Origin: Obrimoposthia wandeli | Lineage: Eukaryota | Assembly: GCA_977020255.1 (NCBI GenBank) | Contig: CDROCS010000851.1 | Span: 434,001-498,000, forward strand | Direction of reading: 5' to 3' | Length of the DNA: 64,000 nt | Shown: positions 16,752 through 41,802 of the stretch, piece after piece | Layout: every line of letters begins with the position of its first letter | Position numbering within the stretch: position 1 is the stretch's first letter | Position numbers and translations under genes: made by a program | Notes under the pieces: model-generated | Seen by the model: only the letters and a program-made list of their open reading frames with translations | Database searches by the model: none | What the model was told of the DNA's origin: nothing

Positions 16752-16833
16752 AATAAAGACAAGTATTTTTGTAACATATATTCCTTAAAATCACAAAGGA
16801 GAGTAAAAATATATACATAAACATATAAAAAGA

Positions 16834-20839: not shown

Positions 20840-20884
20840 TTTCAATTTTGTTTATAATAGAGAGTTAATTGTTGATTGATGCTT

Positions 20885-20976: not shown

Positions 20977-20988
20977 ATTGAAAATAGT

Positions 20989-21501: not shown

Positions 21502-21532
21502 TTTTTATAGCAGTAATTTTATTTGATATTGT

Positions 21533-21916: not shown

Positions 21917-23111
21917 TTATATCTTCTTGTTTTTTATTGTTTTCATTCTGTTTATACTAGTACTGTTCATTGAAGTAATTTTGGTAATTTGAACCTCAGA
22001 ATCGAATACTCCATAGATTATAATATTAGTAGGATGTTCAAGTGCTTTTGTAAACTTGATTTCTACTTTAAAATTTCCCTGTTTAGGGATTTGAGCTCGA
22101 TTAATATCGAAATCAGGAGAGAGAACAAATGTGAACAGTGTATCTTTAAAATCAGTCATTGAAATTCCAACATTAGCATCCTTATCCAAATTAAAGATTG
22201 CACATAAGAAAACACATAATCATTATTTTCAAAGTCATTCGTATACGTTTCTTGATAATCAATATTTCGTGCAAGTTTAATTGAACTCCCATATGTCCCA
22301 ATTGAGAAACCTCATTTTTAGACTCACCTCCATAGGTAGAAGTATTTTGGAAAGCAATTAAAACAAAGTTTGGAAGTTGCATATCACCAAAATTCTGATT
22401 CTTGTAATAAGATAGTGCTCCTGTAGGGATAGCATGAGAAACAAGATTAGTTTTTCTGATAGGATAACATGCATTTTGCTTCTCCAACCATATTTGATGT
22501 GCAACGAGTACAGATGGTTCCACCTTTACTCTACGAACCAGCAGTTTTGCTTCCGTAATCTCAATTGCTGCTTTAATAGTATCATCGCAAACAACACTAA
22601 AACCTACTGGATTTCTCTTCATTCGAATATGTGCACTTACACCGGGTAAAAGATACTTTGGTTGATTAAAGAAATCCAAATGAAGACTCCCACAAAGTGA
22701 CAATACTTTAGATTTCGCAATCGAAGCTGTTCTTCTTTTTTCATCATCATCAAACCCAATTGCATCAATATTAATCAATTTCGTATCATTACCCTAATTC
22801 AGTAATGTTTCAATCATTGCTTTATGGGTGTAACTAGTATTATTTCCCTCAACTTTCACATTATTGAGACTGAGAATCACATGCTTGAAAAGAGTATGAA
22901 ACATGAAATTAGATGATTTGATAACCAAATCATCATCCAAATCACCTCCTCCTTTCTTTGTAACTTTCAATTGAACGAGAAATAAACTATCCGGAGAAGA
23001 TGTCATGTTAACCGTATTTGTTGGATTATTTTCTTCAAAACTAGCACTATCAATCACAACCCGAGGTATAGGTTTATCGAATATACACAATTCAGTTTTA
23101 GCACAACTCAT
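21917..23111 (-). pseudogene. MCP: Major capsid protein (double jelly roll), frameshifted
   Basis: Collinear with intact MCP at 38310 (ELCIFD, LDFFNQPKYL, LSPDFDI..GNFKVEIKF). Confidence 0.9.
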
Positions 23112-23422
23112 TTCTTAAAAATTGTTCCACCTAGTTTGTTTATACCAGATGCTTTAGATGTTTTCTTACGTTTAGAACCACTTCCATTTTGAGTTTTTTT
23201 CTAATATTCAGCTAGACTTGGAGTGGGAAGAAATTTCTCATCACCAGACAAGTATGTTGATCCAACATTAGCAATAAATTTCCCGAGTCGCTTGAGTAGT
23301 GAGAATGCAAAACAACCAAAAACTTTCATCCATCCTGATCCATACTGTTTTCCCACAAAATAAGGCAAATCACCTCCTTGCATGGGTTTACTATACGCAT
23401 CGATTATACTTGAATCAATCAT
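23108..23422 (-). pseudogene. Small Polinton core-like protein (GGDLPYFVGKQYGSGW), frameshifted
   Basis: Homologous to 37913-38317. Confidence 0.75.
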
Positions 23423-24437
23423 AATTTACGAAAATGAACCGTTAAACTTGTTTTAGCTCCGTAAGCAAATGTAATTAATCTTCTAGAATCATTACGTATA
23501 TTAACTTCAATATAGTTTATATAAGAAGAACTCATTGGAATATAAATTGGATTTTCAATTGGAATATGTATAACATCACCATACTTGTGCTTTTCCTGCT
23601 GAACCCAAATTTCTATTATTTATGGAAGTTTAGTTCCTCCTACGAATATTGGTTCAGTAATACTCGTGTAGATATAAATTTGATTATATGCATTAGTTAT
23701 TTTAGCCCCAACCTTTGCTTTGAAAACCTTATTTTTATTTTCAAATTCATTTTCATCAAAACCGATAATCGTAGCTAATGATTTATCCATAATAACATAA
23801 TATTTGATTTCAATTTGAAATGAATTAACTTATTAACTATTTTAAAGTTTTCAAATACATTCGGGAACACTGTTTTAAAATGTTTACACATGCTTTCACT
23901 ATCTGGAAAATGAAAAGCATTGGGAACTGAATATATTTTCCTCTCGCATTTAGTGAATCTGCTTTTTATCTTGAATGTAATTATCGGATACTTGATGTGT
24001 TTATCCATAATTCTCGAAAACACATGCTTTCCTTTTTCAGGGTTAGTTGGAAATCCATATTGTTCTGCAACAATTTCATAACTAAAAACTATTTCAAAAT
24101 TATCCCCTTGTCTTATAATTTGAATTCGATTCTTTTTATTTAAAAAGATTGTAAAATCATCGCCTGCCTTAATACGAGCCAAATCCATTTGACCCTTATC
24201 AAATAGTAAAGTCACATCAGTTACTTTATCAGCTTCTTGTTGAGTAATATATTCAATCTCAGTTTCACTTTGAATAGATAGAGGAGAGTAATTGAAAGAA
24301 AATTCCGTAAGAGCAGCTTCCCAAGCACCAGGTAAATTATTTGAGCTTTGATAATCAATACTAAAAGTATTAGCAGTATTATTCGGTTGAGTTAATGGCG
24401 AACCATTACTTGGTAATACAACATACATTGAGTTCAT
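23419..24437 (-). pseudogene. mCP: Minor capsid (penton-like) protein, frameshifted
   Basis: YVVLPSN..PNNTANTF..WEAALTEF N-terminus and YNQIYIYTSI..VGG, IEVNIRND C-terminus; homologous to 36858-37871. Confidence 0.85.
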
Positions 24438-25680
24438 TCTATTTGAGAAGTTAATATCCAACTAAGTTCAGTTTATCCATCCCACTTAACTCGATATTGT
24501 TTATGCTTTCTTCTCCCTTTTGTCTCTAAGATTTCTTGAATTCTATATATATTTGGTTTCTCAGGCAAGACTTGTAATTCCTCATGATAAAATTTACTTT
24601 TGATTATATTATTGCTATCATCCTCAATGAAATACATTACATGTTTATTATCAATTTTAGTTATACAAAATACTTCATCGCTCCAATTCTCTTTGAAATT
24701 CTTTATAAAAAGAGTAGTACTAATTTTAGAAATACGTACATAATCACCAACTTTATACTTGGGTTCCTTTACAACTTGACTTTAGTTACGGCGTTGCCAA
24801 ATTTCCATAGCATTTTCATCTGTAACATCAACAGGTCTCTTTCGGTTTAATGATGAGTGTTCACTATGATTGTATGCATGTATTATTTGAGGTAAAACAG
24901 TGACCCAATACTTATTTCCCTGCTTTGTGAAATACTTTTTCAATCGATCTCTCAATGTTCGATTAAAACGTTCAACTAAAGCAGCTTTATATTGGGAAAA
25001 TACTGAGTAATGATTAATATTATGTTTTTTCAATAATGCACTAACATGTTTATTATAAAACTGCTTTCCGTTTGGAAATTTCTTGGTTTTATTTCTTTAA
25101 TCAAAAGCTTCATTGCCTCTAAAATATCGTTACCAGACATAGACTTTAATGGAATAGCTCGTGAGAATCTGCTAAAGACATCAACACAAGTTAAAAGATA
25201 TCGATGACCACCGTTAATACTCGCATACAGAATCATTTCCATCAAATCTGCTTGCCATAAATCATTTGGACCGCTCGTTTTGATGATCTTGTTGGGAACC
25301 GACGTCTCATTGGTTTGTTTAAGCCAGGGTTTCTCAACCTTTTTTCACCACGGCCCCCTTTAGTTTGCAGCAAATTGCTGTGGCCCCCCTCTACTATGGA
25401 CAAAAAGATTACATCGTATACGTATTGTTTTCAATTATACTATTCTGTCATGGAAACATTCAAAAAGATAATCAATGAGAAAACTATATTTAAAAAATGT
25501 TAGTGTGACCCTTGTGCGTGTGCAGTGAAAACAGGGGTGTTAATTTTTTATTTTTGTTTGGCTCGTGTGGCCCCCTGGCAAATTGTGTGGCCCCCCAGGG
25601 GGCCCCAGGGCCCCCGTTGAGAAACCCTGGTTTAAGCTGTAAGCTAATTGATTTCTCAACCACGCCTGAGTTTCCAGAGG
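24434..25680 (-). pseudogene. INT: Retroviral-like DDE integrase with chromodomain, interrupted by a hAT MITE
   Basis: WQADLMEM, CVDVFSRF, FQTE, LVERFNRTL, YRVKWDG*. Confidence 0.9.
25325..25629 (-). mobile_element. Buster-type hAT MITE (305 bp), deletion derivative of the 6972-8111 family
   Basis: Same TIRs; 8-bp TSD GTTTAAGC (25317-25324 / 25630-25637); internal sequence shared with the 6972 copy in reverse orientation. Confidence 0.95.
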
Positions 25681-25899
25681 TTTCTTATGCCGATTCATGT
25701 TAGCCTTGACAGTTATTTTACCAGAAACTATTTTCTGTATCATATTAAGTAAATCATCAATTACAAAAGTAGGGAATGATTTAAGAATAGTTGGGCAGCG
25801 AATAGCAGGTGCACGCACGAGAGAATTGAAATAGGCACTAATCCTAGATTTCTTATTAACAATTATTTTCTTATTTGATTTTTGAGCAACCATTTTCAT
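25680..25899 (-). pseudogene. Small pX-like core protein, C-terminus deleted and fused to integrase N-terminus
   Basis: LKSFPTFVIDDLL homologous to 35358 and 30426 ORFs; GGF tail missing. Confidence 0.65.
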
Positions 25900-25959
25900 T
25901 GTACTTAAAACTGATTTAATCCATTTTTTAACTTCAGGTTTAACAGTTTACTTTTTAAA

Positions 25960-26128
25960 ATTTATCTCCGAGAAACTGGTTTCTTTGTTTGTTTATAGAC
26001 GCTAATTTTTGATGGATTGATTATATCAGTTTTAACTTTAAAGTCATCAGGACAATCTTGAGTAAAATCAATAATAATGTATCCATGAGGAATAGTAGTT
26101 GCATCTTGAAATAAATCAATTAGGAAAC
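25960..26128 (-). pseudogene. Packaging ATPase C-terminal fragment
   Basis: FLIDLFQDATTIPHGYIIIDFTQDCPDD matches the C-terminus of 34626-35255. Confidence 0.8.
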
Positions 26129-27024
26129 TTATATTATGTGTTTAAGTGGCCACATGGGAAAAGATTCCACGGAAATCATATCCGTTATGCAAACGACACA
26201 TTCGGGATTTGGTAAGAGGTATTCGAGATAATTTATACGATGTTTTGCTTCAGATTTTATTTCTAACGATCTTAAATCCATTATAAACTCATATATAGAA
26301 TCATATTTATTACCGAATGTTTTAAACCTATTAACTAAAACGGCTTTGATTCTATCGTGGCTATACTCACGTTTCAGCAAAACTATTTGACGAGTTTCCA
26401 TCTGAGCATCAATTTCATCATTACTAATATGATATTCCACAATACATCCGTTCTTGATTCCCATACTAGATGCTTTACAATCTCGAGTATGAAAGATTCT
26501 TTCGGGCATAGTATCAATAAACTCTTTCAGTTAGAAACCACATCGATAAAATCATTCCAAATATAGACATGTAGGAAAATCGACAATGTAGGTATTTCAA
26601 TATCATTAAAATAATTATTACGTACAATAACTACTTTATCTATTGGAGTTGAATCAAAATAAATTTCCTTGGTGTTGGAATCAATTATTAGTATATTTGA
26701 TACATTCATTTTCAAAACAAACGGACATGTTGGGAAATATAGCATATGCTGCTTCATTGGTTTCAGATCGTACTCCCATTCCGATATTCCTCCCAGACAG
26801 TAAACACACATTACATTATCTTTCGAATCATCGTGCTTATAAAATCCTGCTTCTGCTACAGCTTTCTTATCCGCTAGACCAGTAAACTTTGCTTGTAATG
26901 ATTCTAATCTTCTTTCTTCATATATCATATTTTCATTTCTTCTTGAAATCTTTTCAAAACACCGTCGTCTAATGCTGAGTTCTCCATTTTGCGAAACATA
27001 ATGTGCAATAAATTTAGTAGTCAT
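26129..27024 (-). pseudogene. iap: IAP-like gene: BIR domain plus C-terminal RING, frameshifted and truncated
   Basis: C-x2-C-x16-H-x6-C (CVYC..H..PTC) preceded by AEAGFY; CVVC..SF then PCGH after a one-base frameshift. Confidence 0.85.
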
Positions 27025-27033
27025 AACAAAATT

Positions 27034-27060
27034 GAATGAGGAAATTGTCTAGCTTATATA
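27034..27060 (-). promoter_or_regulatory. TATA box and TCATTC initiator upstream of the IAP gene
   Basis: TATATAAG ~20 nt upstream of TCATTC, then ATG at 27024. Confidence 0.4.
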
Positions 27061-27443
27061 GTAAGTGAAATCTATTTTAGTAACATTCTTAGTTTTTACA
27101 AGAAATGTCATGTGATGTCTTTGTCTTAAGAATAAAGCAGTATAAACAATATTTTGATAATGATTTTATTGAAAATGAATAATCAAAATAATCAAAGTAG
27201 AGTAGAGTATATAGGTTCTGGTAGTAATTTATATTCTAATATGAATTAGAATAGAAATAATCAGAGAGAAAATATTAATCCATCAAGTCAAACAATAACA
27301 AGTCCTACGCGCGTAACCGAAGAACGTAAGCCCTTTAAGGATATGACTAATACTAAACGATTTTCATAAACAAGAATGTCGACCAATTAGAATTGAGCTT
27401 TAGAGGATAAACAATTGAATATTTCAACTTATAATTGTAAATA

Positions 27444-27830
27444 TGAATTTTGAAAGCTATATCAACCTATGCATACATATTATGGATATGAGATGCATTT
27501 TTTGAAGAAAGCTCATAACTATAATTTTATTTTTTCTGTCAACACCGAGCCGTTTAAATTTGATTTTGAAGTATCACATTTGACATCTGTGGATAAAGAG
27601 AGAATCAATATTATCTTGACTCAAATAGGAAATAACTATGCGCTTCAGGAAAACAAATTCATAATCAAAGGATAAACTGCCACTTTCAAGCAGGAGAATG
27701 GAACAATATTCGAAGGACCTCATCCTAAAGTAGAATGGATTCTCTCAATCAGAATTCAAGGATGCAAGATCGATCCCAGTGGATTGGAAACTCCGATATG
27801 GAAAATAATTGAAGCTGTTAGAGTTGACTA
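27444..27830 (+). pseudogene. Uncharacterised Polinton protein, homologue of 34170-34544
   Basis: YYGYEMHFL ~ YYEYDMFFL; WILSIRIQGCK..TPIWKI ~ WMLEIKILGYK..TLIWRI; frameshift and stop. Confidence 0.6.
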
Positions 27831-27968
27831 ATACATTTTTGTGTCTTTATTTGTATTATTTTATTTTATATATAAACAATAGTGATACTTTAATAATATT
27901 TATTATGAAAATGACTAAAAAAACCTACTAAATCATTAAAGTCAAAAAACACTAAGGTTAAAAAGACT

Positions 27969-28232
27969 ATGAGTAAAAAGACTATAAGTAAAAAGAAAAT
28001 CATGGAAGTTTTGGGTATTCATATGGTGGTAGGAAATCTTTTAGGTGGATGGTTTGGTGGAGTTGATAAAAAAGCTATAAAACATAAAAAGAATGTGGAT
28101 TATATTAGAGGTATACAAAAAGGGAATGGATTGCAAAAAGGGGATGGTATACAAAAAGGGGATGGTATGCTTGATATTTTTGTAAAATTAGATAAAGTTG
28201 TAAAAGCATTTGAAAAGGATCCTAGTTCCTAA
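27969..28232 (+). CDS. Small basic protein with QKGxG repeats
   Basis: Lys-rich; IQKGNG-LQKGDG-IQKGDG. Confidence 0.5.
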   Translation: MSKKTISKKKIMEVLGIHMVVGNLLGGWFGGVDKKAIKHKKNVDYIRGIQKGNGLQKGDGIQKGDGMLDIFVKLDKVVKAFEKDPSS

Positions 28233-28279
28233 CTTGGTAGAAAACTTTTACTAAAATCTCCAAAGAGTTTGTAATTACA

Positions 28280-28521
28280 TAAAGTTGCAATATAGATGCA
28301 GTACGTGACTGTCTTTGTAGGTATTGATGACTGTCTTTGTTAGACACTTACACACATACATACATGTATAAGAATAAATGTAGTACGTGACTTGTTACTA
28401 TTGATTACATAAAGTTGCAAGTTTTTGCTATATAGATGAAGTACATGACTGTCTTTGTTAGATAGATACAGGAACATTTAAACATATTTATCAAATTATA
28501 TAATACTTATTTTTATAAGTA
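28280..28521 (-). repeat. Element A right inverted repeat
   Basis: Reverse complement of 16498-16751. Confidence 0.9.
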
Positions 28522-28559
28522 GATAATTTAATTGAATTTAGTTTAAATAAATTATATAA

Positions 28560-29034
28560 ACTTGATTACACACACACACATACACGGGATGTCTTTTGGT
28601 GAAGGCCGCGTGTTAGTACAACCTTTAGATAAAAATATATATAGTTTTAAAGTATGTTACTAAAAATAGAATATGAGTCATGCAATGAGTTATCGAGGAG
28701 TCATCTTTTTGACCTCACCGCGACCTTAATGTTATATGACCTTAAATTGACCTTAAATGACCTTGTCCTCATGAGGTCATGTCCTCATCGTGACCTTAAG
28801 CTGAGCTCAAGGGGGTGTGTGCTCAAAATGTCTTTGTCCTGAAAGACGCACATCCCCCTACTTGATGTATGTCTTTCAGGACAAAGACATTTTTCTAGAC
28901 CTAGATTTTCTTAAGGTCATGACCTACGTCTTGTTCTCACCGTGACCTTAACTTGACCTACATTTTTTGTCCTCATCATGACCTGAACCTTTCCTCAGGG
29001 GGGTTTTGTTCCAGAAGTGCTACATCTACCTACT
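28560..29034 (-). repeat. Polinton terminal region: GACCTT-rich repeats, 23-bp-stem hairpin (28825-28893), ending CTACCTACT
   Basis: Same 9-nt terminus as the right end of element B (41794-41802). Confidence 0.7.
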
Positions 29035-29262
29035 CACATGTACACAATTCCGTATCACGAATTGCGCAATTCAATGTTCTCCAAGAAGATTTGAGGTATG
29101 AGTATTGACAATATATCCACCAGGCACTAATGTTGGGATTTTTTCCATCGTGTATACACTCTTAAATTGCGGTCCTAGCAACAAACTAGTTATTTCATTC
29201 ACTTGAACAGTACTTTAGGTTAATAAAATCGTTAAAAAATTAAATTAAAAAACACATTTCAT
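29035..29262 (-). pseudogene. PRO: Protease 5' part with decayed intron (29213-29257)
   Basis: ATG AA...AG T ACT GTT CAA gives MNTVQVNEI..FKSVYTMEKIP..GGYIVNT..GEH*IA. Confidence 0.75.
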
Positions 29263-29511
29263 ACAATCACACGTCGGCCTTTAGTTATTTCAACTTCAGA
29301 ATCAAAAATCCCGTAAATCAGTACGTTTGTCAGGACTGTTAATGACTTGTGAAACTTAATGTCAAGATGTAAATTACCCTGTTTTTCTAATTGGTTTTGT
29401 GTGATATCAAAGTCAGGGGCTAAATCAAAAGTGAAAAGTAAAAAATGGATAATAATTTTTGAATTCACCCAATGATACGCCATTGTTTATATTCTTATCC
29501 AAGTTACCCAT
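29259..29511 (-). pseudogene. MCP: MCP C-terminal fragment
   Basis: LAPDFDI..GNLHLDIKF..IYGIFDSEVEITK. Confidence 0.85.
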
Positions 29512-30420
29512 ATGAATACGGAAAACTGTAGGTTTATCAATTACTTGTAATTCAGGTTTATAAAATTTCCCTGTTATTACATTACAATCATCATCAACTA
29601 TAGAGTACATTACAGGATTTGCACGTTTGTCTATTTTCTCTATCCTAAACACCTCATCACTCCAATTCAGATCAAAGTTTTTAATAAAGGGGCTACCACT
29701 AAACTGTCATATCCGAACATAATCATTATTCTTATGTTTAGGTTTCTTAACTTTACCGGCTTGATTAAATACTTAACCAAATTTCCATTGAATTTTTGTT
29801 GGTAATATCAACAGGTCTCAATCCGTCTAAACATCTATGCTTACTGTGTTTGTATGAAGTCATTACGTTTGTTAAACGTCAGCACATCTTTGATTGCCTT
29901 TGCAATAAAATGTCTTTTCAAACGATCTTTGAATATTCTATTAAACCTTTCAACTACTGCAGCTTTGAATTGTAAAACTACATAGTACTATTTTAATTTC
30001 TTAAATAAATGACCTACAATTTTGTTGTAAAACTATTTACCCTTATCGGTTTGCACATGTATAGCGAACATTTTCAATCATTATACTTAGATGAGCCAGT
30101 ATATCCTTTCCTAATTTAGATTTTACAGGTAATGCACGTGCATACCTTGTAAACACATCAATACATGTTAAAATATAATTGTTATCATCATATGGTATCA
30201 TTTCCATCAAATCGGCCTGCCATAAATCGTTAGGACCGCTTGTTCTGTATTCTCGAGTCTGGGGCCTCCTTTTCATTGGCTTGTTTAGACTGTATGCTAG
30301 CTGATTGCTTAGCCATTTCTAATTTTCTTTTGACTCGTTTGACCATTTGATGATAGTTTGCCAATATTATTTTTTACAACAAGTGAATTTCAAATCGATG
30401 TTTGGTAAGGTGTTACCCAT
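29512..30420 (-). pseudogene. INT: Integrase (chromodomain deleted)
   Basis: WQADLMEM, CIDVFTRY, VERFNR, GKFYKPELQ. Confidence 0.85.
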
Positions 30421-30425
30421 TTTGT

Positions 30426-30755
30426 TTATGATTGTGTCCACTTTACAATCAAAGGAGATAATAAAGTAGCAATTATCGGTATTAATGCATCGATAAAACC
30501 ACCTTTTTGTTTTTGAATTACTCTACGTTTACATATTTTGCCTTTAGTATTCACTAAATCAAGTAAAACTTGTTGATGTTTTCTTAGGTTGAGTTTATTA
30601 TTACCGATTTTTACAGAACCTTTTGTAATATTAAACAACTCTTCAACCAACTTATCAATAACTAAGGGTTGAAATGACTTGAAAATACGTGCTCTATATA
30701 TGCTTGGAGACTTGATTAAAGCCTGAATGTAGGGAAGTATAGATTTTGAAATCAT
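30426..30755 (-). CDS. pX-like small core protein (QKGG/FIDALIPIIATLL)
   Basis: Homologous to 35358-35687; intact ORF. Confidence 0.7.
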   Translation of the reverse strand: MISKSILPYIQALIKSPSIYRARIFKSFQPLVIDKLVEELFNITKGSVKIGNNKLNLRKHQQVLLDLVNTKGKICKRRVIQKQKGGFIDALIPIIATLLSPLIVKWTQS

Positions 30756-31030
30756 ATTTAATGAATTAAACTATTTTTCTTAATTGATTTCTTAACAGGC
30801 TTATTCTTCTTTAATGTGTTAATTTTTACCGGTTTCCTCTTTACTGTCTTGGCCGATTTCCTTAATGATCCATTGACTACTTTACGTTGATAAAGCACTG
30901 ATTTAATAAGATGTTTAATATGAGAATTTAATATTTATCATCAATTTGTTATCATTTGCGTGTAATGTATCACCCGGTCTCCATTTACGTCCAACTCCAA
31001 CGGGCATTGTTTCTTTCACAAATGACAGAA

Positions 31031-31643
31031 TTAACATGTATATATGCTTTTCTTTTGCTTATACACAAAATCATTATTGAAAATATCGGTTCTCACGCAT
31101 AAATCACCTTGACATTCCTGGACAATTCATGAGGGTTTGTTGTAGCATCTTGAAATGTGTCAATCAAATATTGCTTATTACAAGGGAAAGCTTGACAGGC
31201 AACAAAGTCGATAACCGTTTGATCTCATGGATTCTTAAATAATACCAGATAATAAATATTTAAATTCCGAGTACAGTGTTGACCACCTTGATGAAAGAGA
31301 TTTTAAGTGATAAAAATCACTGTTACATTCCTATGTCTGGCTATTTCTGTAAACATGTTTATTAAAATCCGACTCTTTATTTGCTTCATCATACAAGTCA
31401 TTAATTACAATGACATCTCCTGAATTTAATCTCATAGACCATTTATTATCAAAATCATTAATAAACTGAATATCCGTCAATTTACATAATTCTGTGCGTG
31501 TTAAATCCGTAATGCCAGTATATTCTACTAAACCTTTGATTGAACATGCTTTTAATTTTAAGTAATTTAGTTACAAAGTGGATTTTCCCACTCCCACTAG
31601 GTCCTACTATTTGGTAAACAGCGTTATTTTTAAGTTTCATCAT
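31031..31643 (-). pseudogene. Packaging ATPase
   Basis: GPSGSG Walker A, VIVIND Walker B, FKNP*DQ; frameshifts. Confidence 0.85.
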
Positions 31644-32362
31644 AGTAGGTAAAAGGATGAAGTCTAAGCCACTTGACCCCCCCTAAAGGGTGTCACACCA
31701 TAACGGTGTCTTGCCACACCATAAGGGTATATGTTGCCTCACCTCAGGTGAGGCAACATATACCCTTATGGTGTGACACCCTTTAGGGGGAGGCGGGAGG
31801 GGGAGGGGAGGGGGAAGGATAGGGGGGTCAAGTGGCTTAGACTCCATCCTTCTTTGATATACCACTATGGTCGTCCATAGGTTAAAGGGTCAAGTGGCTT
31901 AGACTCCATCCTTCTTTGATATACCACTATGGTCGTCCATAGGTTAAAGGGTCAAGTGGCTTAGTCTCCACCCTTCTTTTTGAGATATACCACTATGAAA
32001 GGGTCAAGTGGCTTAGTCTCCACCCTTCTTTTTGTGATATACCACTATGAAAGGGTCAAGTGGCTTAGTCTCCACCCTTCTTTTTGTGATCTAGTCTCCA
32101 CCCTTCTTTTTGTGATCTAGTCTCCACCCTTCTTTTTGGTTAACCACTAATTCAAAGGGTCAAGTGGCTTAGTCTCCAACCTTCTTTTTGTGATCTAGTC
32201 TCCACCCTTCTTTTTGGCTAACCACTAATTCAAAGGGTCAAGTGGCTTAGTCTCCACTCTTCTTTTTGTGATCTAGTATCCACCCTTCTTTTTGGCTAAC
32301 CACTAATTCAAAGAGTCAGGTGGCTTAGTCTCCACCCTTCTTTTTGTGATTTAGTCCATAAT
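31644..32362 (+). repeat. Element B left TIR: palindromic terminal ~210 bp plus tandem tagtctccacccttctttt units
   Basis: Matches reverse complement of 41329-41802; perfect hairpin 31715-31775. Confidence 0.95.
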
Positions 32363-33584
32363 AATGCTTTTCTAATGACAAATCGGTTTTGAAACCATGT
32401 AAACACTTTTCACACCATTTTCTGCTAATTCTAGTCGTTCCAGTTCGAATATTTAATAGCCGGTTAAGACAACTTATTCCTATATAATGAAACCGTTCCT
32501 TGGATTCTAGTAACAATAAATTAACTATAGTTCCTTCCTTCATTTTTGATTTGTATGCAACATCGATATAAGGATTCTTGATAACATCAGTTTTTGATTC
32601 TTTTTCACTTACCTCGTTGAATATGAATACATTTATTATTATACCAGGATTTTGCCGTTCAAATTTTGATATATTTGATATTTTCATAGGCATGTCTTCG
32701 GAATTATATACAAAATCATTTAAAAATCTTTCATAGTTGCTTGGTCTATTTCTATGTGAGTCTATTTCATTATATTTAAGTATTGACAATATTGCATAAA
32801 TAAAGCAAAGATTATCAGAGTTTAGAATATTTATGACTGCTTTAGATTTTGTAAGAGAATTTGGTGATTTAATATATGAATGACCTGACAATGCACAAAT
32901 TTGACTATATTTAGTAACAATAAATGCATATTCAAGTATATTCATCAATTTCCAACCACTACCCTTTTCTGAATATTCTTCAACTTTATTTTCCATTGTA
33001 TCTTCCATTTCTGAAATTATAGCATGTGAAAAAATCATTGCTCGATGTGAAGCATACCATTCTTTAGTTTCTCCATCATTCTTTTCAAACCTCATTCTAA
33101 TGATGTATTGTATCTTTGCTTTTCCCATTAATTGCACTATTCTTTCTAGTTCGTTTAATAATGAAACTGGAACCTTAAGACTTACAAGATTGAGATGATC
33201 TACTTTCATGGATATCATTGAATAACTATTTTCTAACGATGTTTTAGTATGTATATTGTCATTTATTTTACGTTTTCGTGACGGAGTAGGAGCTGAAATT
33301 ACTATGTTTGATGGTACATTAATTATATCAGTTCTTTTGCTTAAAGCCGGTACTTTAAATAATTTTTTCTAACTAACATTTTCATATTCTTTTAAATGAC
33401 TAACATGTCGACTATAAAATAAGTTGTAATCAACATTTTCAGTGCTTAAACATTGTGGACATATGAAATAATTTATCCTTTTGTATGAATAACCATAATA
33501 TTTTTTCATTATATCATGACATTCTTGAGGATTAAAATGTGTATCCGAATAACAAAAATTTGAATAAGTTTTACATATACTCAT
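32325..33584 (-). pseudogene. pPolB: pPolB N-terminal region only (Cys/His domain and terminal-protein region), truncated at the TIR
   Basis: Collinear with A 19289-20793 (YIKSP..AVINILNSDNLCFIYAILS, NPYIDV, FHYIGI..LNRLL, WCEKCLHGF); in-frame TAG at 33369-33371. Confidence 0.85.
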
Positions 33585-33689
33585 CTGATGATATGATTGA
33601 TTTGATTGGACTTGAGATATTGGTTGATTTGTAGACTGAATAAAAAAATATATATATATAAATACAATAATTTAATTATTTTACTTACA

Positions 33690-34154
33690 ATGTTAACAAA
33701 TATTAATTATAAAGGAATTTGCTTAGATGATGTATCCAAATTAAAATTTCGAACACGACCAGAACAATACGTTTATAAAGCCAAAGATTATACAATACTT
33801 ATTTTTAGAAATAAGAAATGCAGGATTATGGGATGTAAGGTACCTATTAAAAATATTTCTTACCCTTTAAGAATAAATATACTTGGTATTCAATCAATTA
33901 CGATATGTGAAAATTTAGAACAAAGTTTCAATCTATTTAAATTATCGAATGTATTACGTAATGCATGTTCATTTGACCCTGAGGTTTTCCCAGGCTTAAG
34001 ATTAAATATTTTCAATCCATTGTGTGTAAATATTTTCACATCTGGAAAGGTCGTAATTTTAGGTCTTAGAAATTTAGATTTTCAAAATCAAGTTAACGAT
34101 ATTATGACATACATTAAAAATAAATTATATAAATACGAAACAATTTCTAATTAA
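33690..34154 (+). CDS. TATA-binding-protein-like protein (154 aa)
   Basis: Two TBP-like repeats: TILIFRNKKCRIMG and SFDPEVFPGLRL..VNIFTSGKVVILG (cf. YEPELFPGL..LIFVSGKVVLTG). Confidence 0.85.
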   Translation: MLTNINYKGICLDDVSKLKFRTRPEQYVYKAKDYTILIFRNKKCRIMGCKVPIKNISYPLRINILGIQSITICENLEQSFNLFKLSNVLRNACSFDPEVFPGLRLNIFNPLCVNIFTSGKVVILGLRNLDFQNQVNDIMTYIKNKLYKYETISN

Positions 34155-34169
34155 ATCATTCAATTTTAA

Positions 34170-34544
34170 ATGTCTTATAAAGCCGTTCAAAAGTATTACG
34201 AGTATGATATGTTCTTCTTGGCATCTGTATGGATTCAACCAATGACATTATCGAAAACTTTGTACAATTACCGAGTCTCTGATTTTGACGACAAAGACAT
34301 TCAAAAATTCAATGAAATCGTCAAATATTTGAAAATTGATGTCGAACTTGAGAATGAGGGTATATTTATGCGCGGAGATAAGTGCAAATTTTATGATTGT
34401 GGTGGAACAAAGATTTCGGATATTCAAGAAGATGGAAGAAGTTGGATGCTCGAAATAAAAATTCTCGGATATAAAATAAATAAACAGAATGAAACAACTC
34501 TCATCTGGAGGATTCATACAGCGACCGAATATTTTGATGTTTAA
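34170..34544 (+). CDS. Uncharacterised Polinton protein (124 aa)
   Basis: Intact ORF with a homologue in element A. Confidence 0.7.
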   Translation: MSYKAVQKYYEYDMFFLASVWIQPMTLSKTLYNYRVSDFDDKDIQKFNEIVKYLKIDVELENEGIFMRGDKCKFYDCGGTKISDIQEDGRSWMLEIKILGYKINKQNETTLIWRIHTATEYFDV

Positions 34545-34625
34545 TAAATATTTAATAAAATGTTGTTATTGTTATAAACATGTACTTATTCTGATATATT
34601 TATTTTATATTAATATTTATATATA

Positions 34626-35255
34626 ATGTTATTAACAAACAATTCAACTTTTCAAGTAGTAGGACCAAGTGGTAGTGGAAAAACTTTATTTGTTTGTAAA
34701 TTATTAAATTCAAAAATGTTTAAAAATAAATTTAATAAAATATATTGGCATCAAGGTGGTGATGGAGAAGCTGGTTTAACAAACCAAGAATTTAATAAAA
34801 TAAAAAACATTAAGATTATTAACGGTTTTGATGAAAATTGGACGACAAGACTCGTAAAAGGTGATGTAATTGTTATTGATGACTTATATCAAGAGGCTAA
34901 CAAAGAATCTGATTTTAATGATTTATTTACAAAAATTGCAAGACATAGAGAAGTTACTGTAATTTTTATAACCCAAAATTTATTTCATCAAGGAGGAAAT
35001 CATCGTACTCGTAATCTTAATGTACATTATTTGATTTTATTCAAAAATCCTAGAGATCAGACAGTGATAGATTTTATTGCTCGTCAAGCATTTCCTCATA
35101 ACAAGAGTTATTTAATTGATGCGTTTCATGATGCTACATCTTTACCTCATGGTTATTTATTTTTAAATTTTACTCAATCATGTCCTGATGATTTAAGAAT
35201 TGTTACTGATATATTTAACCGTAATGGTATTACAGTCTATAAACAAAATAAATAA
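34626..35255 (+). CDS. A32/FtsK-like packaging ATPase
   Basis: GPSGSGKT, VIVIDD, IFITQNLF, LFKNPRD. Confidence 0.95.
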   Translation: MLLTNNSTFQVVGPSGSGKTLFVCKLLNSKMFKNKFNKIYWHQGGDGEAGLTNQEFNKIKNIKIINGFDENWTTRLVKGDVIVIDDLYQEANKESDFNDLFTKIARHREVTVIFITQNLFHQGGNHRTRNLNVHYLILFKNPRDQTVIDFIARQAFPHNKSYLIDAFHDATSLPHGYLFLNFTQSCPDDLRIVTDIFNRNGITVYKQNK

Positions 35256-35274
35256 TAATAATGTTTTAAAATAA

Positions 35275-35400
35275 AATGAATTTTAAAAAGAGTATTCTTA
35301 AACATAGCAAAAGGACAGATAAAGATGAAGTTAAAAAATTAATAAACACTGTATTATATGATCGTAATAATATTGAATTTTCAAAAAGTTTATTATTTTA
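35275..35400 (+). CDS. Small basic ORF (41 aa)
   Basis: KDEVKKLINTVL ~ KPEVKKWIKSVL in A; a basic ORF occupies the same position in C. Confidence 0.4.
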
Positions 35401-35687
35401 AAACCTTAATTGACGTACCAAAAACGAATAAAATGAAAATGTTGAAATCATTTCCAATTTATGTAGTTGATGATTTAATAAAAATTTTAAATAAAATAAT
35501 TTATGGTAAAATTAAACCTGATGATAATATTTTAAAATATAAAAATTCATTAATAAATTTAGCAAATTCACGTGGTAAAATTAATAAAAGAAACATTATT
35601 TATAGTCAAAATGGCGGATTCATATTGGCCCTACTGCCCGCTATAGCATCAGTAATAGCTAGTGTTATATCTTCAAGATGGGGATAG
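35358..35687 (+). CDS. pX-like small core protein (QNGG/FILALLPAIAS)
   Basis: GG followed by a hydrophobic helix, like adenovirus pX; homologues in A and C. Confidence 0.7.
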   Translation: MIVIILNFQKVYYFKTLIDVPKTNKMKMLKSFPIYVVDDLIKILNKIIYGKIKPDDNILKYKNSLINLANSRGKINKRNIIYSQNGGFILALLPAIASVIASVISSRWG

Positions 35688-35832
35688 TTGTCTTAATAAC
35701 GAAAATAATTACATTCATTCGTTTTATACAAACATATAAACAGATTAAAAATATATTTAACTTTTATAATAATGGGGATAAACAATACAAAGTTGTCTAA
35801 CTTATTTATAAATTTTAATTCTTCATGCTGCA

Positions 35833-36858
35833 ATGGAAAAGATTTGGAACAATCCAGAAGATCCAGACGGTTATACAGGGTTAGAAAAATTGACAAAAAG
35901 AGTCAAACAATCAAAAACAAACACACAAAAATGGTTAAGAAATGAATTATCATATAGTTTGAATAAACCTTTAAGACGTAAATTCCCTACTAGATCATAT
36001 AAAACTAATGGTATTAATTCGTTATGGCAGATGGATTTAATGGAAATGATTCCTTATTCTTCAGTAAATAATGGATTCAAGTATATTTTAACTTGTATTG
36101 ATGTATTTAGTCGTTTTGCAAGGGCAGTTGGTGTTAAATCAAAATCAGGTATTGATTTATTACATGCAATAGAATCTTTAATTGTTGATGATGTACCAGT
36201 AAATATCCAAACCGATGAAGGTAAAGAATTTTTTAATTCACATGTTAAGAAATTATTTAAAACTGAAAATATCAAACATTATTCAGTATATTCTCAATAT
36301 AAAGCTGCAGTAGTTGAAAGATTTAATAGAACGTTAAGAGAACGGTTAAAGAAATATTTTATTAAACAAGGTAATAAGAAATGGGTGAATGTATTACCAA
36401 AAATTATTTATGCTTATAATAATTCTAAACATAGAGGTTTAGATGGTTTAAAACCTGTAGATGTAAATAATAAAAATGAATTTGATATTTTGTTGAAACA
36501 AAATCTAAAAGAAAAGAAAGTTAAATCTAAATATAAAATTGATGATTATGTTCGAATATCAAAAATAAGTACAAGTCCATTTATTAAAAATTTTAATCAA
36601 AATTGGAGTGATGAGGTTTTTCAAATTCATGATATTAATTATAAACAAAATCCAATAATGTATATTTTAAAAGATATTGATAACGTCATCATCAAAGGAA
36701 AATTTTATAAACAAGAGTTACAATTAATTGATAAACCTAAACTATATCGAATACAAGAAATTTTAGAAACTAAAGGTCGTGGTAAGAATAAACAATATTA
36801 CGTAAAGTGGCACGGATACTCTGAACCTTCTTGGATATTTGCTTCTCAAATTGAATAA
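35833..36858 (+). CDS. INT: DDE integrase with C-terminal chromodomain
   Basis: WQMD, QTDEG, VERFNRT; YYVKWHGY..SW; intact 341 aa. Confidence 0.96.
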   Translation: MEKIWNNPEDPDGYTGLEKLTKRVKQSKTNTQKWLRNELSYSLNKPLRRKFPTRSYKTNGINSLWQMDLMEMIPYSSVNNGFKYILTCIDVFSRFARAVGVKSKSGIDLLHAIESLIVDDVPVNIQTDEGKEFFNSHVKKLFKTENIKHYSVYSQYKAAVVERFNRTLRERLKKYFIKQGNKKWVNVLPKIIYAYNNSKHRGLDGLKPVDVNNKNEFDILLKQNLKEKKVKSKYKIDDYVRISKISTSPFIKNFNQNWSDEVFQIHDINYKQNPIMYILKDIDNVIIKGKFYKQELQLIDKPKLYRIQEILETKGRGKNKQYYVKWHGYSEPSWIFASQIE

Positions 36859-37871
36859 TGTCAAAATATATTATTTTACCTAGTAATAGTTGTCCAAGTA
36901 CTCAACCTAACAATACAGCCAATCAATTTACTGTAGATTGAGAAAACTCTCTAAATTTAGATGGTGAATGGGAGGTTGCCTTGACTGAATTTGTATTTAA
37001 TTATACTCCTTTAACAATACAAACTAATTCAAAAATACTTTATAAAACGGAAAAGATAGAAATGAAAACTTTCGATGTATCTTTTGCAATTTTAAATGGA
37101 TTAATTTTTAATAATTTAAATACTGTTTTCAATTTCAAAATTACAAAGGGTCAAAAATTAGAAATAAGTACAATTAACAGTATTCATCGAATGTTGTGTA
37201 AATTCGAAACTTTAGAAGAATCAAAAATTATAGGTTTTAATGAAATACAAAAAATTTCTAGTCATGTTATAACAAGTGATGAAATTGTTGACATAAATAA
37301 AAATATTCATGCTAAAATGAGAATTACAATTTATTATTTAGCTGAATATGAATACGAAATAAAATTTAATCAAAATTATTTGATACAAGATAGTTCTTCA
37401 TTATGTAATATTATAGCCAGTAAATGTAATGAAATTTTTAAAAGCTGTAATATAGATTCAGACGGATTATTTGATATTTTATTAAAGAAAAATGTAAAAT
37501 CAGTTTTATTTGACGAAAAACTTGCATCTTTATTAGGTTTTAATAATGTTTTCTTTGAGAAACGAATTAAAGGTTTTCAAAAACCAACACTTTCTAGCTC
37601 ATATAATCAAATGTATATTTATACTAGTTTAACAGATTCTGTCTTAGTAGGATCTGATTATGTTCCACTGTTAAAGTCTATTTGGTTAAAATCATTAAAA
37701 TATCGATATGGAGATGTAGTAAATGTTAAAATTGATAATCCAATGTACTTGAAAATGAGAGATTCAAGTATTAATAGAATCGAGGTAAATATACGTGATG
37801 ATTCTGGTAATTTAATTCCATTTTCATATGGAGCAAAAATTAGTTTAACTCTTCATTTACGTAAAGTATAA
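36858..37871 (+). pseudogene. mCP: Minor capsid (penton-like) protein with one in-frame TGA (36939-36941)
   Basis: ATG overlaps INT stop (TAATG); LPSNS..PNNTANQF..WEVALTEF; YNQMYIYTSL, IEVNIRDD. Confidence 0.85.
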
Positions 37872-37912
37872 ACAATATAAATATATTTAAAATATAAATA
37901 TATATATATAAA

Positions 37913-38317
37913 ATGAATACATCAATTATAAAATTTTATAGCAAAAGTCAACAGGGCGGTGAACTTCCCTATTTCATTGGTAAACAATATGGATCTGGTT
38001 GGTATCAAACTATTTCTAGATTAGCTATTCCATTATTAAAAAAAGTTGGTTTATCAGCAGCTACAAGTGCTGCCAATGTAATTGGTGAAACGGTAGGAAC
38101 TGCGTTAACAAATCCAAAAAACATAATTTCATCTCTCAAAGAAAATACTATCAAAGAAGTCAAAACTTTGATTCCAAAATTAAAAAATAATGCTGTTGAG
38201 AGTTTAAATAAAGTCGCAAATTGTGTTGAACAAAATGGAAAGGGTCTTAAACGTAAAAGAAATAATTTAAATAGTATAAACAAACGTCTTAAAGGTACTA
38301 TTTTCCAAAATGACTAG
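37913..38317 (+). CDS. Small Polinton core-like protein (GGELPYFIGKQYGSGW)
   Basis: Homologue in A; basic C-terminus. Confidence 0.8.
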   Translation: MNTSIIKFYSKSQQGGELPYFIGKQYGSGWYQTISRLAIPLLKKVGLSAATSAANVIGETVGTALTNPKNIISSLKENTIKEVKTLIPKLKNNAVESLNKVANCVEQNGKGLKRKRNNLNSINKRLKGTIFQND

Positions 38318-39530
38318 TATAAAATCTGAATTGTGTATTTTCGATAGACCACTACCTCAAGTAGTGATTGAAAATTCAAGTTTTGAAGAAATATTTCCAA
38401 TCAATTCAATTACTGGAAAAAATTTAAATGACATAGAATTTAATATTCATGCATCTGAAGAAGATTATCTGGATTTGAATGATACTTTGTTAAATATTAA
38501 ATTAAAAGTTGTAAATGAAGATGGTACTGATTTAATGAAAGATAGTGATGTAACTCCGGAGAATTACATGTTTCAAACTTTGTTTAGAGATGTTATTCTA
38601 ACACTTAATAATGTAAAGGTTGAAGGAGGAAATGGAACGTATACTCATAAGGCTATATTCGATACTCTTTTGAATTTTAGTAGTGATACCAAGTATACTA
38701 ACCTTGAATGTTCCGGGTATGATGATGATGCAGAAAATCGTAAACAATGGATTAGTGAATCTAAAATATTTTCATTGTGTAATTCAATTAGATTAGATTT
38801 CTTTGATCAACCAAAATATTTGATTCCAGGGATTAATGTTCATTTGAGATTTATGAGAAATCAGCATAATTTTTCGCTCTATTCAGAAACTTCAAAACCA
38901 ATTATTCAAATTCTAGATGCTAGATTGTATGTTAGAAGAGTAAAAGTTGATTCTTCAGTAATGATTGGACATCAGTTAGGTTTGCAAAGTCAGAATGCAG
39001 TTTACCCAATTAGAAAAACTCAGTTAGTAACATATTCAATTCCTCAGGGTTCTTTGGAACTTAATAAAGATCAAATATTCGGAGACTATCGTTTACCCAA
39101 GTTCATTTTGATTGCTTTCAAAGATACACCTCAGGGTGGTAAGGAATACAAAGTTAAATCTTCTACGTTCAATACATTTAATGTTTCAACAATATCATTA
39201 GCTAGAAATACAGATTATCGAGAAACTTATAATCTAGATAATAACAATTTTTCATTAGCATATATGCAGTCAATTATTCGAAATATGAATATTTTAGATA
39301 AAAACGTGAATAATGGTATCAGATTTTCTGATTTTAAATCAGGAAGTTCGATTTTCACTTTTCTATTAGCACCAGATTTTGATATAAACACTACTCAAGT
39401 GCCTAAAACTGGTAATTTAAGACTTGAAATTAGATTTAATTCTCCTTTGACCGTTCCAACAAGTGTTTTGATTTACGGAATATTTGATTCCGAAATTCAG
39501 ATTACGAAAAATAAAACTGTGATTGTATGA
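38310..39530 (+). CDS. MCP: Major capsid protein (406 aa, intact)
   Basis: SELCIFD N-terminus, LDLNDTLL, LDFFDQPKYLIPG; size and position typical of Polinton MCP. Confidence 0.93.
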   Translation: MTSIKSELCIFDRPLPQVVIENSSFEEIFPINSITGKNLNDIEFNIHASEEDYLDLNDTLLNIKLKVVNEDGTDLMKDSDVTPENYMFQTLFRDVILTLNNVKVEGGNGTYTHKAIFDTLLNFSSDTKYTNLECSGYDDDAENRKQWISESKIFSLCNSIRLDFFDQPKYLIPGINVHLRFMRNQHNFSLYSETSKPIIQILDARLYVRRVKVDSSVMIGHQLGLQSQNAVYPIRKTQLVTYSIPQGSLELNKDQIFGDYRLPKFILIAFKDTPQGGKEYKVKSSTFNTFNVSTISLARNTDYRETYNLDNNNFSLAYMQSIIRNMNILDKNVNNGIRFSDFKSGSSIFTFLLAPDFDINTTQVPKTGNLRLEIRFNSPLTVPTSVLIYGIFDSEIQITKNKTVIV

Positions 39531-39903
39531 AGTAAGCTTATTGTATATTATATTCTTTATTTAAATTAGTACTTTAGAAATTCATAAATCCGGAAAAATA
39601 TTATTGAATAACAAATTTAATGGAGTATATTCATTGGATAAAATTCCATCATTAAAACCCGGAGGTTACATTATCAATACTAATACTTCAAATCTACCAG
39701 GCGAACATTGGATAGCAATATTCGTTGACAGATTCGAGATTCGAGTGTTTGACCCTTTTGGATTCTATTATCCTGCAAAGTTGGTGTCTACACTTGAAAA
39801 AGAAAACATTCCAGTCTACTATAATCGAGTTAAATGTCAGAATCCATTAACTAAAAACTGCGGACCTCTGAGTCTTTTATGGTTGAAACTTCAACACAAA
39901 TAA
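39527..39903 (+). CDS. PRO: Adenain-like cysteine protease, spliced (exon1 39527-39531, intron 39532-39569, exon2 39570-39903)
   Basis: MNTLEIHKSGKILLNNKFNGVYSLD..GEHWIAI..FDPFG..KCQ..NCG. Confidence 0.9.
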
Positions 39904-39954
39904 TTTTAAGTATAAACAAATATATCATTATAGTATTTTATTTTATTTTTTCAA

Positions 39955-40407
39955 ATGGCTTTTCTTGATTTAGAATGTTTTATTGATAATAATGGAGAAT
40001 ATATTCCAAAGGAATTATGTATAATGTATGTGAATGATATGACTTGTCCATTTCATTACGTGTTTAAAAATCAAATACCATGGAGTAGTTTATCATTTAC
40101 AGTTAAAAGAAAAAATCTATATTTGATAAATCATCATCATCAGTTATCCTGGTTTGAAGGTGAAAGCTCTGATATTCATATTGATGATGTTGAAACAATA
40201 TTCTATGTTATGGATTCTATTGATGGAAAGAAAATTAATTTAGTGAAACGAATGTTTCCAAATTTGAGAATTGTGAATTATAATAAAAGTTTCAAAAATT
40301 TAAAGAAAATGCCAAAAAATATTCGATGTCCGTTTAGAAAACACGGAAAACATTGTGCTTATTTGAAATGTTTTTCTCTATGTATTGATTATGTAAATTG
40401 TATATAA
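39955..40407 (+). CDS. DEDD-exonuclease-like accessory protein (150 aa)
   Basis: FLDLECF..KELC; C-terminal CPF..HG.HCAY.KC; homologue in A. Confidence 0.7.
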   Translation: MAFLDLECFIDNNGEYIPKELCIMYVNDMTCPFHYVFKNQIPWSSLSFTVKRKNLYLINHHHQLSWFEGESSDIHIDDVETIFYVMDSIDGKKINLVKRMFPNLRIVNYNKSFKNLKKMPKNIRCPFRKHGKHCAYLKCFSLCIDYVNCI

Positions 40408-41468
40408 ATATATTTATTAAGGATATTTTATTTTAATATATAATTTATGTTATTTAAATAAATTTTACCATAATTCTTTAGATGTGTAAGCCTGGAAAAA
40501 CTTTAGTCTAAATTTTCGCATAGAATAGTATGTGTGTGATTACGTAATACATTCTTAACTAATAAGAGTGAACTTAGTATAAATTTCACATAAAATAGTG
40601 TGTGTATGATTACGTCATACATTCTTAATTGATAAGAGTGAACTTTATCCTAAATTTTCATTATGGACTAGATCACAAAAAAGAAGAGTGGAGACTAAGC
40701 CACTTGATCCTTTGAATTAGTGGTTAGCCAAAAATAAGGGTGGAGACTAGATCACAAAAAGAAGGGTGGAGACTAGATCACAAAAAGAAGGGTGGAGTAA
40801 ATCATCATCATCAGTTATCCTGGTTTGAAGGTGAAAGCTCTGATATTCATATTGATGATGTTGAAACAATATTCTATGTTATGGATTCTATTGATGGAAA
40901 GAAAATTAATTTAGTGAAACGAATGTTTCCAAATTTGAGAATTGTGAATTATAATAAAAGTTTCAAAAATTTAAAGAAAATGCCAAAAAATATTCGATGT
41001 CCGTTTAGAAAACACGGAAAACATTGTGCTTATTTGAAATGTTTTTCTCTATGTATTGATTATGTAAATTGTATATAAATATATTTATTAAGGATATTTT
41101 ATTTTAATATATAATTTATGTTATTTAAATAAATTTTACCATAATTCTTTAGATGTGTAAGCCTGGAAAAACTTTAGTCTAAATTTTCGCATAGAATAGT
41201 ATGTGTGTGATTACGTAATACATTCTTAACTAATAAGAGTGAACTTAGTATAAATTTCACATAAAATAGTGTGTGTATGATTACGTCATACATTCTTAAT
41301 TGATAAGAGTGAACTTTATCCTAAATTTTCATTATGGACTAGATCACAAAAAAGAAGAGTGGAGACTAAGCCACTTGATCCTTTGAATTAGTGGTTAGCC
41401 AAAAATAAGGGTGGAGACTAGATCACAAAAAGAAGGGTGGAGACTAGATCACAAAAAGAAGGGTGGAG
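40127..41468 (+). repeat. Tandem duplication, 2 x 671 bp
   Basis: 40127-40797 equals 40798-41468; ORF stops at 40407 and 41078 differ by 671. Confidence 0.95.
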
Positions 41469-41802
41469 ACTAAGCCACTTGACCCTTTGAATTAGTGGTT
41501 AACCAAAAAGAAGGGTGGAGACTAGATCACAAAAAGAAGGGTGGAGACTAAGCCACTTGACCCTTTCATAGGGGTATATCAAAGAAGGGTGGAGTCCAGA
41601 TCACTTGACCCCTCCCCGCTACCCCTCCCCGCCTCCTCCTCCCTAAAGGGTGTCATACCATAAGGGTATATGTTGCCTCACCGGAGGTGAGGCAACATAT
41701 ACCCTTATGGTGTGGTAAGACACCTTTATGGTGTGACATCCTTATGGTGTGACACCCTTTAGGGGGGGGTCAAGTGATCTAGACTCCATCCTTCTACCTA
41801 CT
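41329..41802 (-). repeat. Element B right TIR with hairpin (~41657-41712)
   Basis: Reverse complement of the left TIR with fewer repeat units. Confidence 0.95.

Follow-up and report, generated by a model that had tools for sequence, protein, structure and literature searches.

The open reading frame at positions 33690–34154 of the window (the whole 64,000-nucleotide stretch of DNA that was analysed) is confirmed, by sequence comparison and structure prediction, as encoding a two-lobed homologue of the TATA-binding protein (TBP) within a Polinton that is bounded by terminal inverted repeats (TIRs). Comparison of the upstream regions of related elements further provides strong sequence evidence for a promoter box, TATAAAC, that matches this TBP in a clade of Polintons, and points to a mechanism in which the element TBP probably reads TATAAAC and recruits host TFIIB and RNA polymerase II (Pol II) as a late-gene switch.

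In a Pfam scan the TBP-like protein matches PF00352 with an E value of 5.4e-12 (45.8 bits, the curated cut-off being 22.9 bits) over residues 67–130, which is repeat 2 only, while repeat 1 gave no PF00352 match in the same scan. A sequence search against the PDB returned TBP chains or fusions as 35 of its 36 solved-structure matches (best 5e-14). The AlphaFold2 model, built from 17 sequences, has a mean pLDDT of 92.2 and a pTM of 0.82, and a Foldseek search with this model produced 44 matches at E ≤ 0.001, all among those listed being TBP, with alignments spanning 153–179 columns of whole TBP saddles, TM scores by query of 0.60–0.73, and fold-alignment identities to cellular TBPs of 19–24%. 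The best named matches in a fold search of a viral library are the TBPs of large DNA viruses. Both lobes are predicted to be present, as the AlphaFold2 model and the Foldseek alignments span whole TBP saddles. A TBP fold is thus indeed predicted, and the two-repeat TBP identity proposed by the initial annotation is borne out, as is its claim that repeat 2 keeps the stirrup and both intercalating Phe (DPEVFPG at residues 96–102; F100 and F116). Its description of repeat 1 as shortened and diverged stands with a refinement: lobe 1 is modelled as a strand, a short helix and three strands, with coil at residues 50–61 in place of helix 2, and the spacer between the marker motifs of the lobes measures 46 residues versus 58–62 in canonical TBPs (mostly 43–50 in close relatives), and one of its two Phe, F39, is retained.

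The gene is carried by a 10.2-kb element in an AT-rich animal genome of 1.35 Gb (Table 1). The inverted repeats open with AGTAGG and therefore start 5′-AG, at 31644 and 41802, as in Polinton/Maverick elements, and the TIRs, rve integrase, A32-like ATPase and protease-like frame around the TBP gene agree with the Polinton setting that had been claimed for it. The labels of the minor and major capsid, PW-like and exonuclease genes are ones we presume from position or motif; the minor capsid, major capsid and exonuclease genes had no Pfam match. No Pfam match above cut-off was found for the 124-residue gene either, which stands beside TBP in several of the families and also in metagenome contigs, aligns with 11 relatives, and encodes last strands that we take to resemble those of a viral single-stranded-DNA-binding protein.

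Table 1. Features of the TBP-carrying Polinton and its TATA-type boxes (positions in the window).
Feature	Position	Strand	Remarks
Polinton, 10.2 kb	31644–41802		
Left terminal inverted repeat	31644–32363		begins AGTAGG; contains tandem subrepeats and palindrome
Protein-primed DNA polymerase remnant	32364–33584	-	in-frame stop near 33370; truncated at left repeat
TA run ending TATAAATA, canonical-type TATA box	33649–33664	+	33 nt before TBP start
TBP-like gene, 154 aa	33690–34154	+	ATG 33690 to TAA 34154, no internal stop
TBP-like protein, lobe 1	residues ~1–60		without helix 2
TBP-like protein, lobe 2	residues ~61–154		
124-aa gene	34170–34544	+	often adjoins TBP gene in relatives
TATAAAC, intergenic	34573–34579	+	53 nt before packaging ATPase
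A32-like packaging ATPase	34626–35255	+	PF04665, 7.7e-6
TATAAAC in last ATPase codons	35238–35244	+	before pX-like core gene
Small basic pX/mu-like core gene	35358–35687	+	homologue at 30426–30755 matches Adeno_PX at 5.5e-4, under cut-off
TATAAAC, intergenic	35735–35741	+	98 nt before integrase
Retroviral-type integrase with chromodomain	35833–36858	+	rve, 1.1e-10
Two TATAAAC words (36640, 36706) in integrase frame	36640–36712	+	218 and 152 nt before presumed minor capsid gene
Presumed minor capsid gene	36858–37871	+	label presumed from position; in-frame stop near 36940
TATAAAC on minor-capsid stop codon	37867–37873	+	46 nt before PW-like core gene
PW-like core gene	37913–38317	+	label presumed
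TATAAAC inside PW-like frame	38275–38281	+	35 nt before presumed major capsid gene
Presumed major capsid gene, 406 aa	38310–39530	+	label presumed
TATAAAC inside major capsid frame	39383–39389	+	~180 nt before protease frame
Adenovirus-type protease frame	39565–39903	+	Peptidase_C5, 0.0024, under cut-off
TATAAAC, intergenic	39911–39917	+	44 nt before DEDD-like exonuclease gene
DEDD-like exonuclease gene, 150 aa	39955–40407	+	label presumed from motif
Right terminal inverted repeat	40678–41802		ends CCTACT; broken by duplication of exonuclease 3′ part, 40797–41078

The polymerase gene is broken and mostly missing in the window copy; its siblings carry a frame of ~1240 codons, unbroken in 4 of the 10 that were fetched. 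PF03175 matches 1242-codon frames beside TBP copies, and the Pfam scan of one sibling polymerase frame gave an Endonuclease_7 and a weak ACT match only. The target-site duplication is absent from the window copy, and 6-bp duplications are present at both ends in 2 of 10 siblings, these two being both of the siblings whose two ends fitted the end pattern. Palindromes lie just within both terminal repeats (31686–31790 and 41640–41760), and the right end of this copy (40400–41400) carries a duplication of ~670 bp that takes in the 3′ portion of the exonuclease gene. Neither here nor in two siblings does an ATG stand near the beginning of the protease frame, which may be spliced or start elsewhere.

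Residue conservation was counted in 73 family rows, 47 of them close and 26 distant, most of the database rows coming without genomic context, and compared with 8 eukaryotic and 13 archaeal rows. Three of the four intercalating Phe of canonical TBP are retained (F39 and F116 in 73/73 rows, F100 in 72/73); the first of lobe 1 is lost in a three-residue deletion, and the N-stirrup is shorter by three residues and without a conserved Phe in all 73 rows. The acidic stirrup is kept as E98 in 73/73 and E/D96 in 71/73 rows (D96 and E98 in the window protein), and N4 is kept in 68/73. On the DNA face a set of substitutions is near-invariant, namely R45 (72/73), M47, S/T69, T/S71 and N114 (73/73 each), together with N6 in 45 of the 47 close rows, where the eukaryotic and archaeal rows at R45, M47, N114, S/T69 and T/S71 have mostly Val, Thr, Leu, Asn and Val. 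From the motif register we take R45, M47, S/T69, T/S71, N114 and N6 to correspond to yeast V122, T124, N159, V161, L205 and V71. Table 1 of PMC12529657 lists all of these yeast residues as DNA contacts and gives KSHV ORF24 as polar at V122, T124, V161 and L205 with N159 and V71 unchanged. The changes in the Polinton family are likewise mostly polar, and four of the positions (not N159) are also altered in KSHV ORF24. The accessible sections of PMC7221094 describe the two stirrup acids as contacting TFIIB and a basic helix-2 patch of the N-lobe as binding TFIIA, TAF1, Mot1 and Brf1; the model of the TBP-like protein has coil at residues 50–61 and is predicted to lack this basic helix. Most of the listed relatives are 135–200 residues long, and a few reach 376.

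At least 150 copies of the TBP gene are present in the genome at 97–100% identity and are stop-free in 150/150 cases, these being the best-scoring 150 of 41,438 candidates, so that decayed copies are under-counted. A family search added three or more further Polinton families of the same genome that carry TBP, at 42–56% identity. All 20 locus pairs picked for a TBP match contain the gene, as do 8 of the 10 pairs picked by the capsid gene of a neighbour, the two without it being rearranged before the TBP region. TBP is found in every sampled family of this module type in the genome; the earlier statement that it is not a core Polinton gene holds for Polintons at large and understated its presence here. 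Outside this genome, a word search returned 16 proteins at 42–53% identity and a profile search 53 clusters at E ≤ 1e-30 (the 650 clusters at 1e-10 include canonical TBPs). Fifteen of 80 metagenome loci (L027–L041) belong to the family, and Polinton genes adjoin the TBP gene in 7 of these 15, the remaining contigs measuring just 1–3.4 kb. Gene order varies among the relatives, and TBP therefore travels with the element type and not with one locus. Between families dN/dS is 0.08–0.45 (11 sequences, where computable), with dS near saturation.

In phylogenetic trees the family forms one side of a long branch (SH-aLRT 95 in a 102-row tree, and 100 in a 47-row tree obtained with a mixture model and a quick search only), set apart in both from host, eukaryotic, archaeal and large-virus TBPs; fragments, near-duplicates and the intron-split TRF-like gene of the host were omitted from the trees. 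A recent retrocopy of a host TBP, modelled by grouping the window protein and its relative L140 with three host genes, is rejected, because of the AU test (p 1.45e-216; 30 rows, simple model) and because siblings and distant relatives have the gene as well. Joining the whole family to the host paralogues gave p values of 0.33 and 0.125 under the same AU settings and is not rejected, so that the gene may stem from an ancient capture of a host-type TBP. Two host TBP genes (L127/L128, G000:C238) lie head to head ~1.2 kb apart, and two divergent host paralogues (L130/L131, G000:C60 and C1092) are intronless.

TATAAAC is present in 26 of 27 upstream regions (110 nt before the gene start) of ATPase, pX-like, PW-like, major capsid and exonuclease genes, five classes that were selected after viewing the upstream alignment. 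These regions come from eight elements, four families of this genome and four metagenome contigs, with the near-duplicates A2, C2, E and L034 dropped. The reverse-strand word occurs 0 times in the same 27 regions, and 1000 shuffles gave a mean of 0.8 and a maximum of 4. Twenty of the 26 boxes lie 34–56 nt before the ATG. In the other classes TATAAAC precedes 3/6 integrase, 1/4 minor capsid, 1/2 protease, 1/3 124-residue and 0/2 polymerase genes, and three accessory genes of L032, outside the chosen classes, have it at 33–36 nt. TBP genes themselves have it in 1/15 cases (L037); TATAWA[ATG] precedes 8/15 of them, and a canonical TATA word is absent within 110 nt in 7/15. In the window element the TATA box of the TBP gene sits in the ~105-nt gap between this gene and the polymerase gene, which are arranged head to head.

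Over 41 kb TATAAAC occurs 56 times in sense versus 3 times in antisense, and 23 of the 56 sites lie 25–60 nt before a gene start, compared with 3/47 for TATAAA[TAG], 3/31 for [ACG]ATAAAC and 0/25 for GTAAAC. The boxes are not independent, since 13 or more of the 26 fall within the coding frame of an upstream gene, at homologous positions; 13 were scored as intergenic, a count inflated by frameshifted copies, and 7 are clearly intergenic. At one homologous Ser-Ile-Asn site in the minor capsid gene, four lineages spell TATAAAC with the less frequent Asn codon (used for 122 of 686 Asn); the family of the window element uses other codons there and has a new box downstream, on the stop codon. This codon turnover, a single event, is what would be expected if the DNA word were under selection.

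It is possible, and in our estimate unlikely, that TATAAAC is a real promoter element read by host TBP, by a paralogue or by a forkhead protein, with the element TBP acting otherwise. The forkhead consensus RTAAAYA overlaps TATAAAC, and the forkhead-like words ATAAACA (61 sense versus 4 antisense) and GTAAACA (10 versus 2) share its strand bias; however, GTAAAC is found at promoter distance in 0/25 cases, the final A is missing after TATAAAC in 11 of 56 sites, and orientation and spacing are strict. Reading by a TBP of the host finds support in its several TBP-family genes, including two that are divergent and lack introns, and in the tolerance of cellular TBP for C at position 7, which can be bound (PDB 1QN3) with a Hoogsteen pair (PMC8643651). 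In a plant assay TATAAACG also retained an activity of 27% (PMC10005294), so that a host factor may read the box. Against this, TATAAAC occurs in 0/12 upstream regions of host histone genes (from 30 of 60 matching loci) and in 0/43 upstream regions, over nine genes, of a second Polinton type in the genome whose integrase has a PLA2-like domain, a control that consists of a single decayed family, covered by partial copies that overlap. In total this second type has 6 + 6 sites in 49 kb versus 33 + 3 in 24 kb of the TBP type. No TBP match was found within its span, the matches there falling in adjoining elements of the first type; among the elements sampled, none of the same module type as the TBP carriers was without TBP. 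Also against a host-read box, TATAAAC persists in metagenome relatives of different base composition.

Two side observations come from these controls. Several host histone genes (L235–L250) have a common upstream TGTTTA word, and the integrase frame of the second type at L216:7336–8634 (- strand) has the phospholipase-A2-like domain at its front; a phospholipase-A2 domain joined to a pX-like tail is described in the available part of PMC8502044.

The reading that we consider most probable is that the element TBP recognizes TATAAAC. Lobe 1 of TBP grips the 3′ half of the TATA box, and given this polarity the change at position 7 of TATAAAC falls under lobe 1. TATAAAC is weak for cellular TBP and would be read by the element TBP because it is lobe 1, over the 3′ half, that has changed; the preference may be attributed to the loss of one Phe and the gain of Asn, Arg and Met on the DNA face. 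In an early step host TBP would read the ordinary TATA box that precedes the TBP gene, and in a second step the element TBP would read TATAAAC before the packaging, core and capsid genes, with the kept acidic stirrup docking host TFIIB and so bringing Pol II to these genes. Host TFIIB is the likely partner because the element has no TFIIB of its own: no PF00382 match was found among 24 window proteins, and the genome gave 12 TFIIB matches among 29 candidates, none high-copy and 7 looking like exon-split host genes, a search that a very divergent TFIIB may escape. Loss of helix 2 would remove the TFIIA/TAF1/Mot1/Brf1 patch and thereby free the element TBP from host control. The term 'late' is our inference, because two of the genes concerned, those of the integrase and the exonuclease, do not encode parts of the virion structure. 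The capsid genes of a coral polintovirus, which form an expression cluster of their own according to the accessible text of PMC11131425, fit such staged expression. A bolder version, which we offer tentatively, is that an animal Polinton clade has the smallest known viral late-transcription system, in which one ~150-residue TBP reads a private TATAAAC, is immune to host TBP regulators and borrows host TFIIB and Pol II, the box and the DNA face co-evolving between lineages.

The initial annotation had suggested that the protein either redirects Pol II to element promoters or is a TFIIB decoy. The positioned, strand-specific TATAAAC lends the former indirect support, whereas the latter is disfavoured because the DNA-facing surface hardly varies among family members. 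A decoy that titrates TFIIB or other TBP partners of the host and so damps host transcription, with DNA binding dispensable, would account for the acidic stirrup being the best-kept partner surface (E98 in 73/73 rows) and for an eroded lobe 1 with one intercalating Phe gone. Its chances are nevertheless slim, as a decoy could do without the near-invariance of the DNA-face residues of the two lobes, the helix to which most regulators bind has been lost, and the positioned TATAAAC is left unexplained. Very improbable, too, is a role in bending or binding element DNA for replication, integration or packaging instead of transcription: in two families the TBP and polymerase genes do stand head to head, and in many elements the TBP gene adjoins the probable single-stranded-DNA-binding gene, yet gene order differs among relatives, the TFIIB-contacting acids are retained, and TATAAAC precedes genes at promoter distance. 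Herpesviruses use six late factors. Herpesviral TBP mimics need partners, in the part of PMC12529657 available, and the element TBP might similarly belong to a larger element-encoded complex that takes its specificity from another element protein, which we consider highly unlikely, as no second candidate was identified among the genes of the gene-dense window element.

With cellular TBP and its paralogues (PF00352; 1YTB, 1CDW, 1MP9) the element TBP shares the two-lobed saddle, N4, F39, F100, P101, F116 and an acidic C-stirrup; it differs in its 154-residue length, in an N-stirrup three residues shorter, in the missing helix 2 of lobe 1, in R45, M47, S69, T71 and N114 on the DNA face, and in forming its own long-stem clade. 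The closest working model is provided by the herpesviral TBP mimics and their late box; the element TBP is not a member of that family. In the accessible portion of PMC12529657, KSHV ORF24 and EBV BcRF1 resemble it in having a viral TBP fold with polar residues introduced at the corresponding DNA-contact positions, in the lack of a viral RNA polymerase, and in a variant TATA word upstream of structural genes, the late box of the beta/gamma-herpesvirus mimics being TATT. ORF24 is described there as a multi-domain protein of 752 residues that contacts Pol II itself and depends on partner factors, whereas the element TBP is a bare saddle with a TFIIB stirrup, and the analogy is partial because ORF24 is modelled as unable to bind TFIIB. 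EBV BcRF1 is a weak fold match only (E 1.2e-3), and sequence kinship with the herpes mimics was not seen.

The TBPs of large DNA viruses, as covered in the available sections of PMC7221094, likewise have both lobes and the conserved Phe before the last strands and have lost the eukaryotic N-lobe signature, but nearly all of these viruses bring their own TFIIB and their stirrup acids vary, unlike the element, in which no TFIIB was found and the stirrup acids are fixed. A term look-up in those sections found no naming of Polinton, Maverick or virophage. For MELD viruses with an adintovirus-like PolB, a gene is already labelled 'TBP' in the legend of Figure 5 of PMC8502044; in the portion available this is a label only, without family, residue analysis, promoter or function, and it may or may not denote the same family. 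AG-starting TIRs, 6-bp target duplications in siblings, and polymerase, integrase, ATPase, protease and capsid-like genes are shared with Polintons/Mavericks (adintoviruses), beyond which the element adds TBP, a probable single-stranded-DNA-binding gene and an exonuclease-like gene. Term look-ups in PMC11161782, PMC11131425, PMC8097293, PMC11071296 and 10.64898/2026.10.13.758929 found no mention of TBP or TATA, and neither a TBP family nor a promoter box of Polintons was found described in the literature covered, which was mostly open-access and without Repbase reports.

Polintons have no RNA polymerase of their own, and no description of their promoters was found in the literature. A conserved TBP together with a matching box would provide a testable mechanism for expression of Polinton capsid genes and would support a real early-to-late viral programme, and TATAAAC offers a motif by which gene starts in such elements may be located. 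The protein also represents a natural TBP in which the TFIIB site is kept, the regulator site is dropped and the DNA face appears rewired, in parallel to herpesviruses. If the mechanism is true, the pair would be a natural orthogonal TBP–promoter system and would indicate that elements whose particles remain unseen go through a staged viral cycle.

Finally, the surroundings of the element are themselves rich in Polinton sequence. Its left end adjoins the decayed remains of two or more further Polintons of this module type (16500–31643), and its terminus directly touches the start of the ATPase frame of one such neighbour. A neighbouring decayed Polinton contains a BIR (inhibitor of apoptosis) gene at 26527–27024 on the - strand (E 9.8e-13). 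Polinton copies elsewhere (L207–L228 and others) also often lie beside or inside Polintons, including those of the other type, which suggests an insertion preference or local accumulation. To the right of the element, a GC-richer, host-like exon at 45376–45792 (- strand) has a weak PTEN C2 match (E 4e-4).
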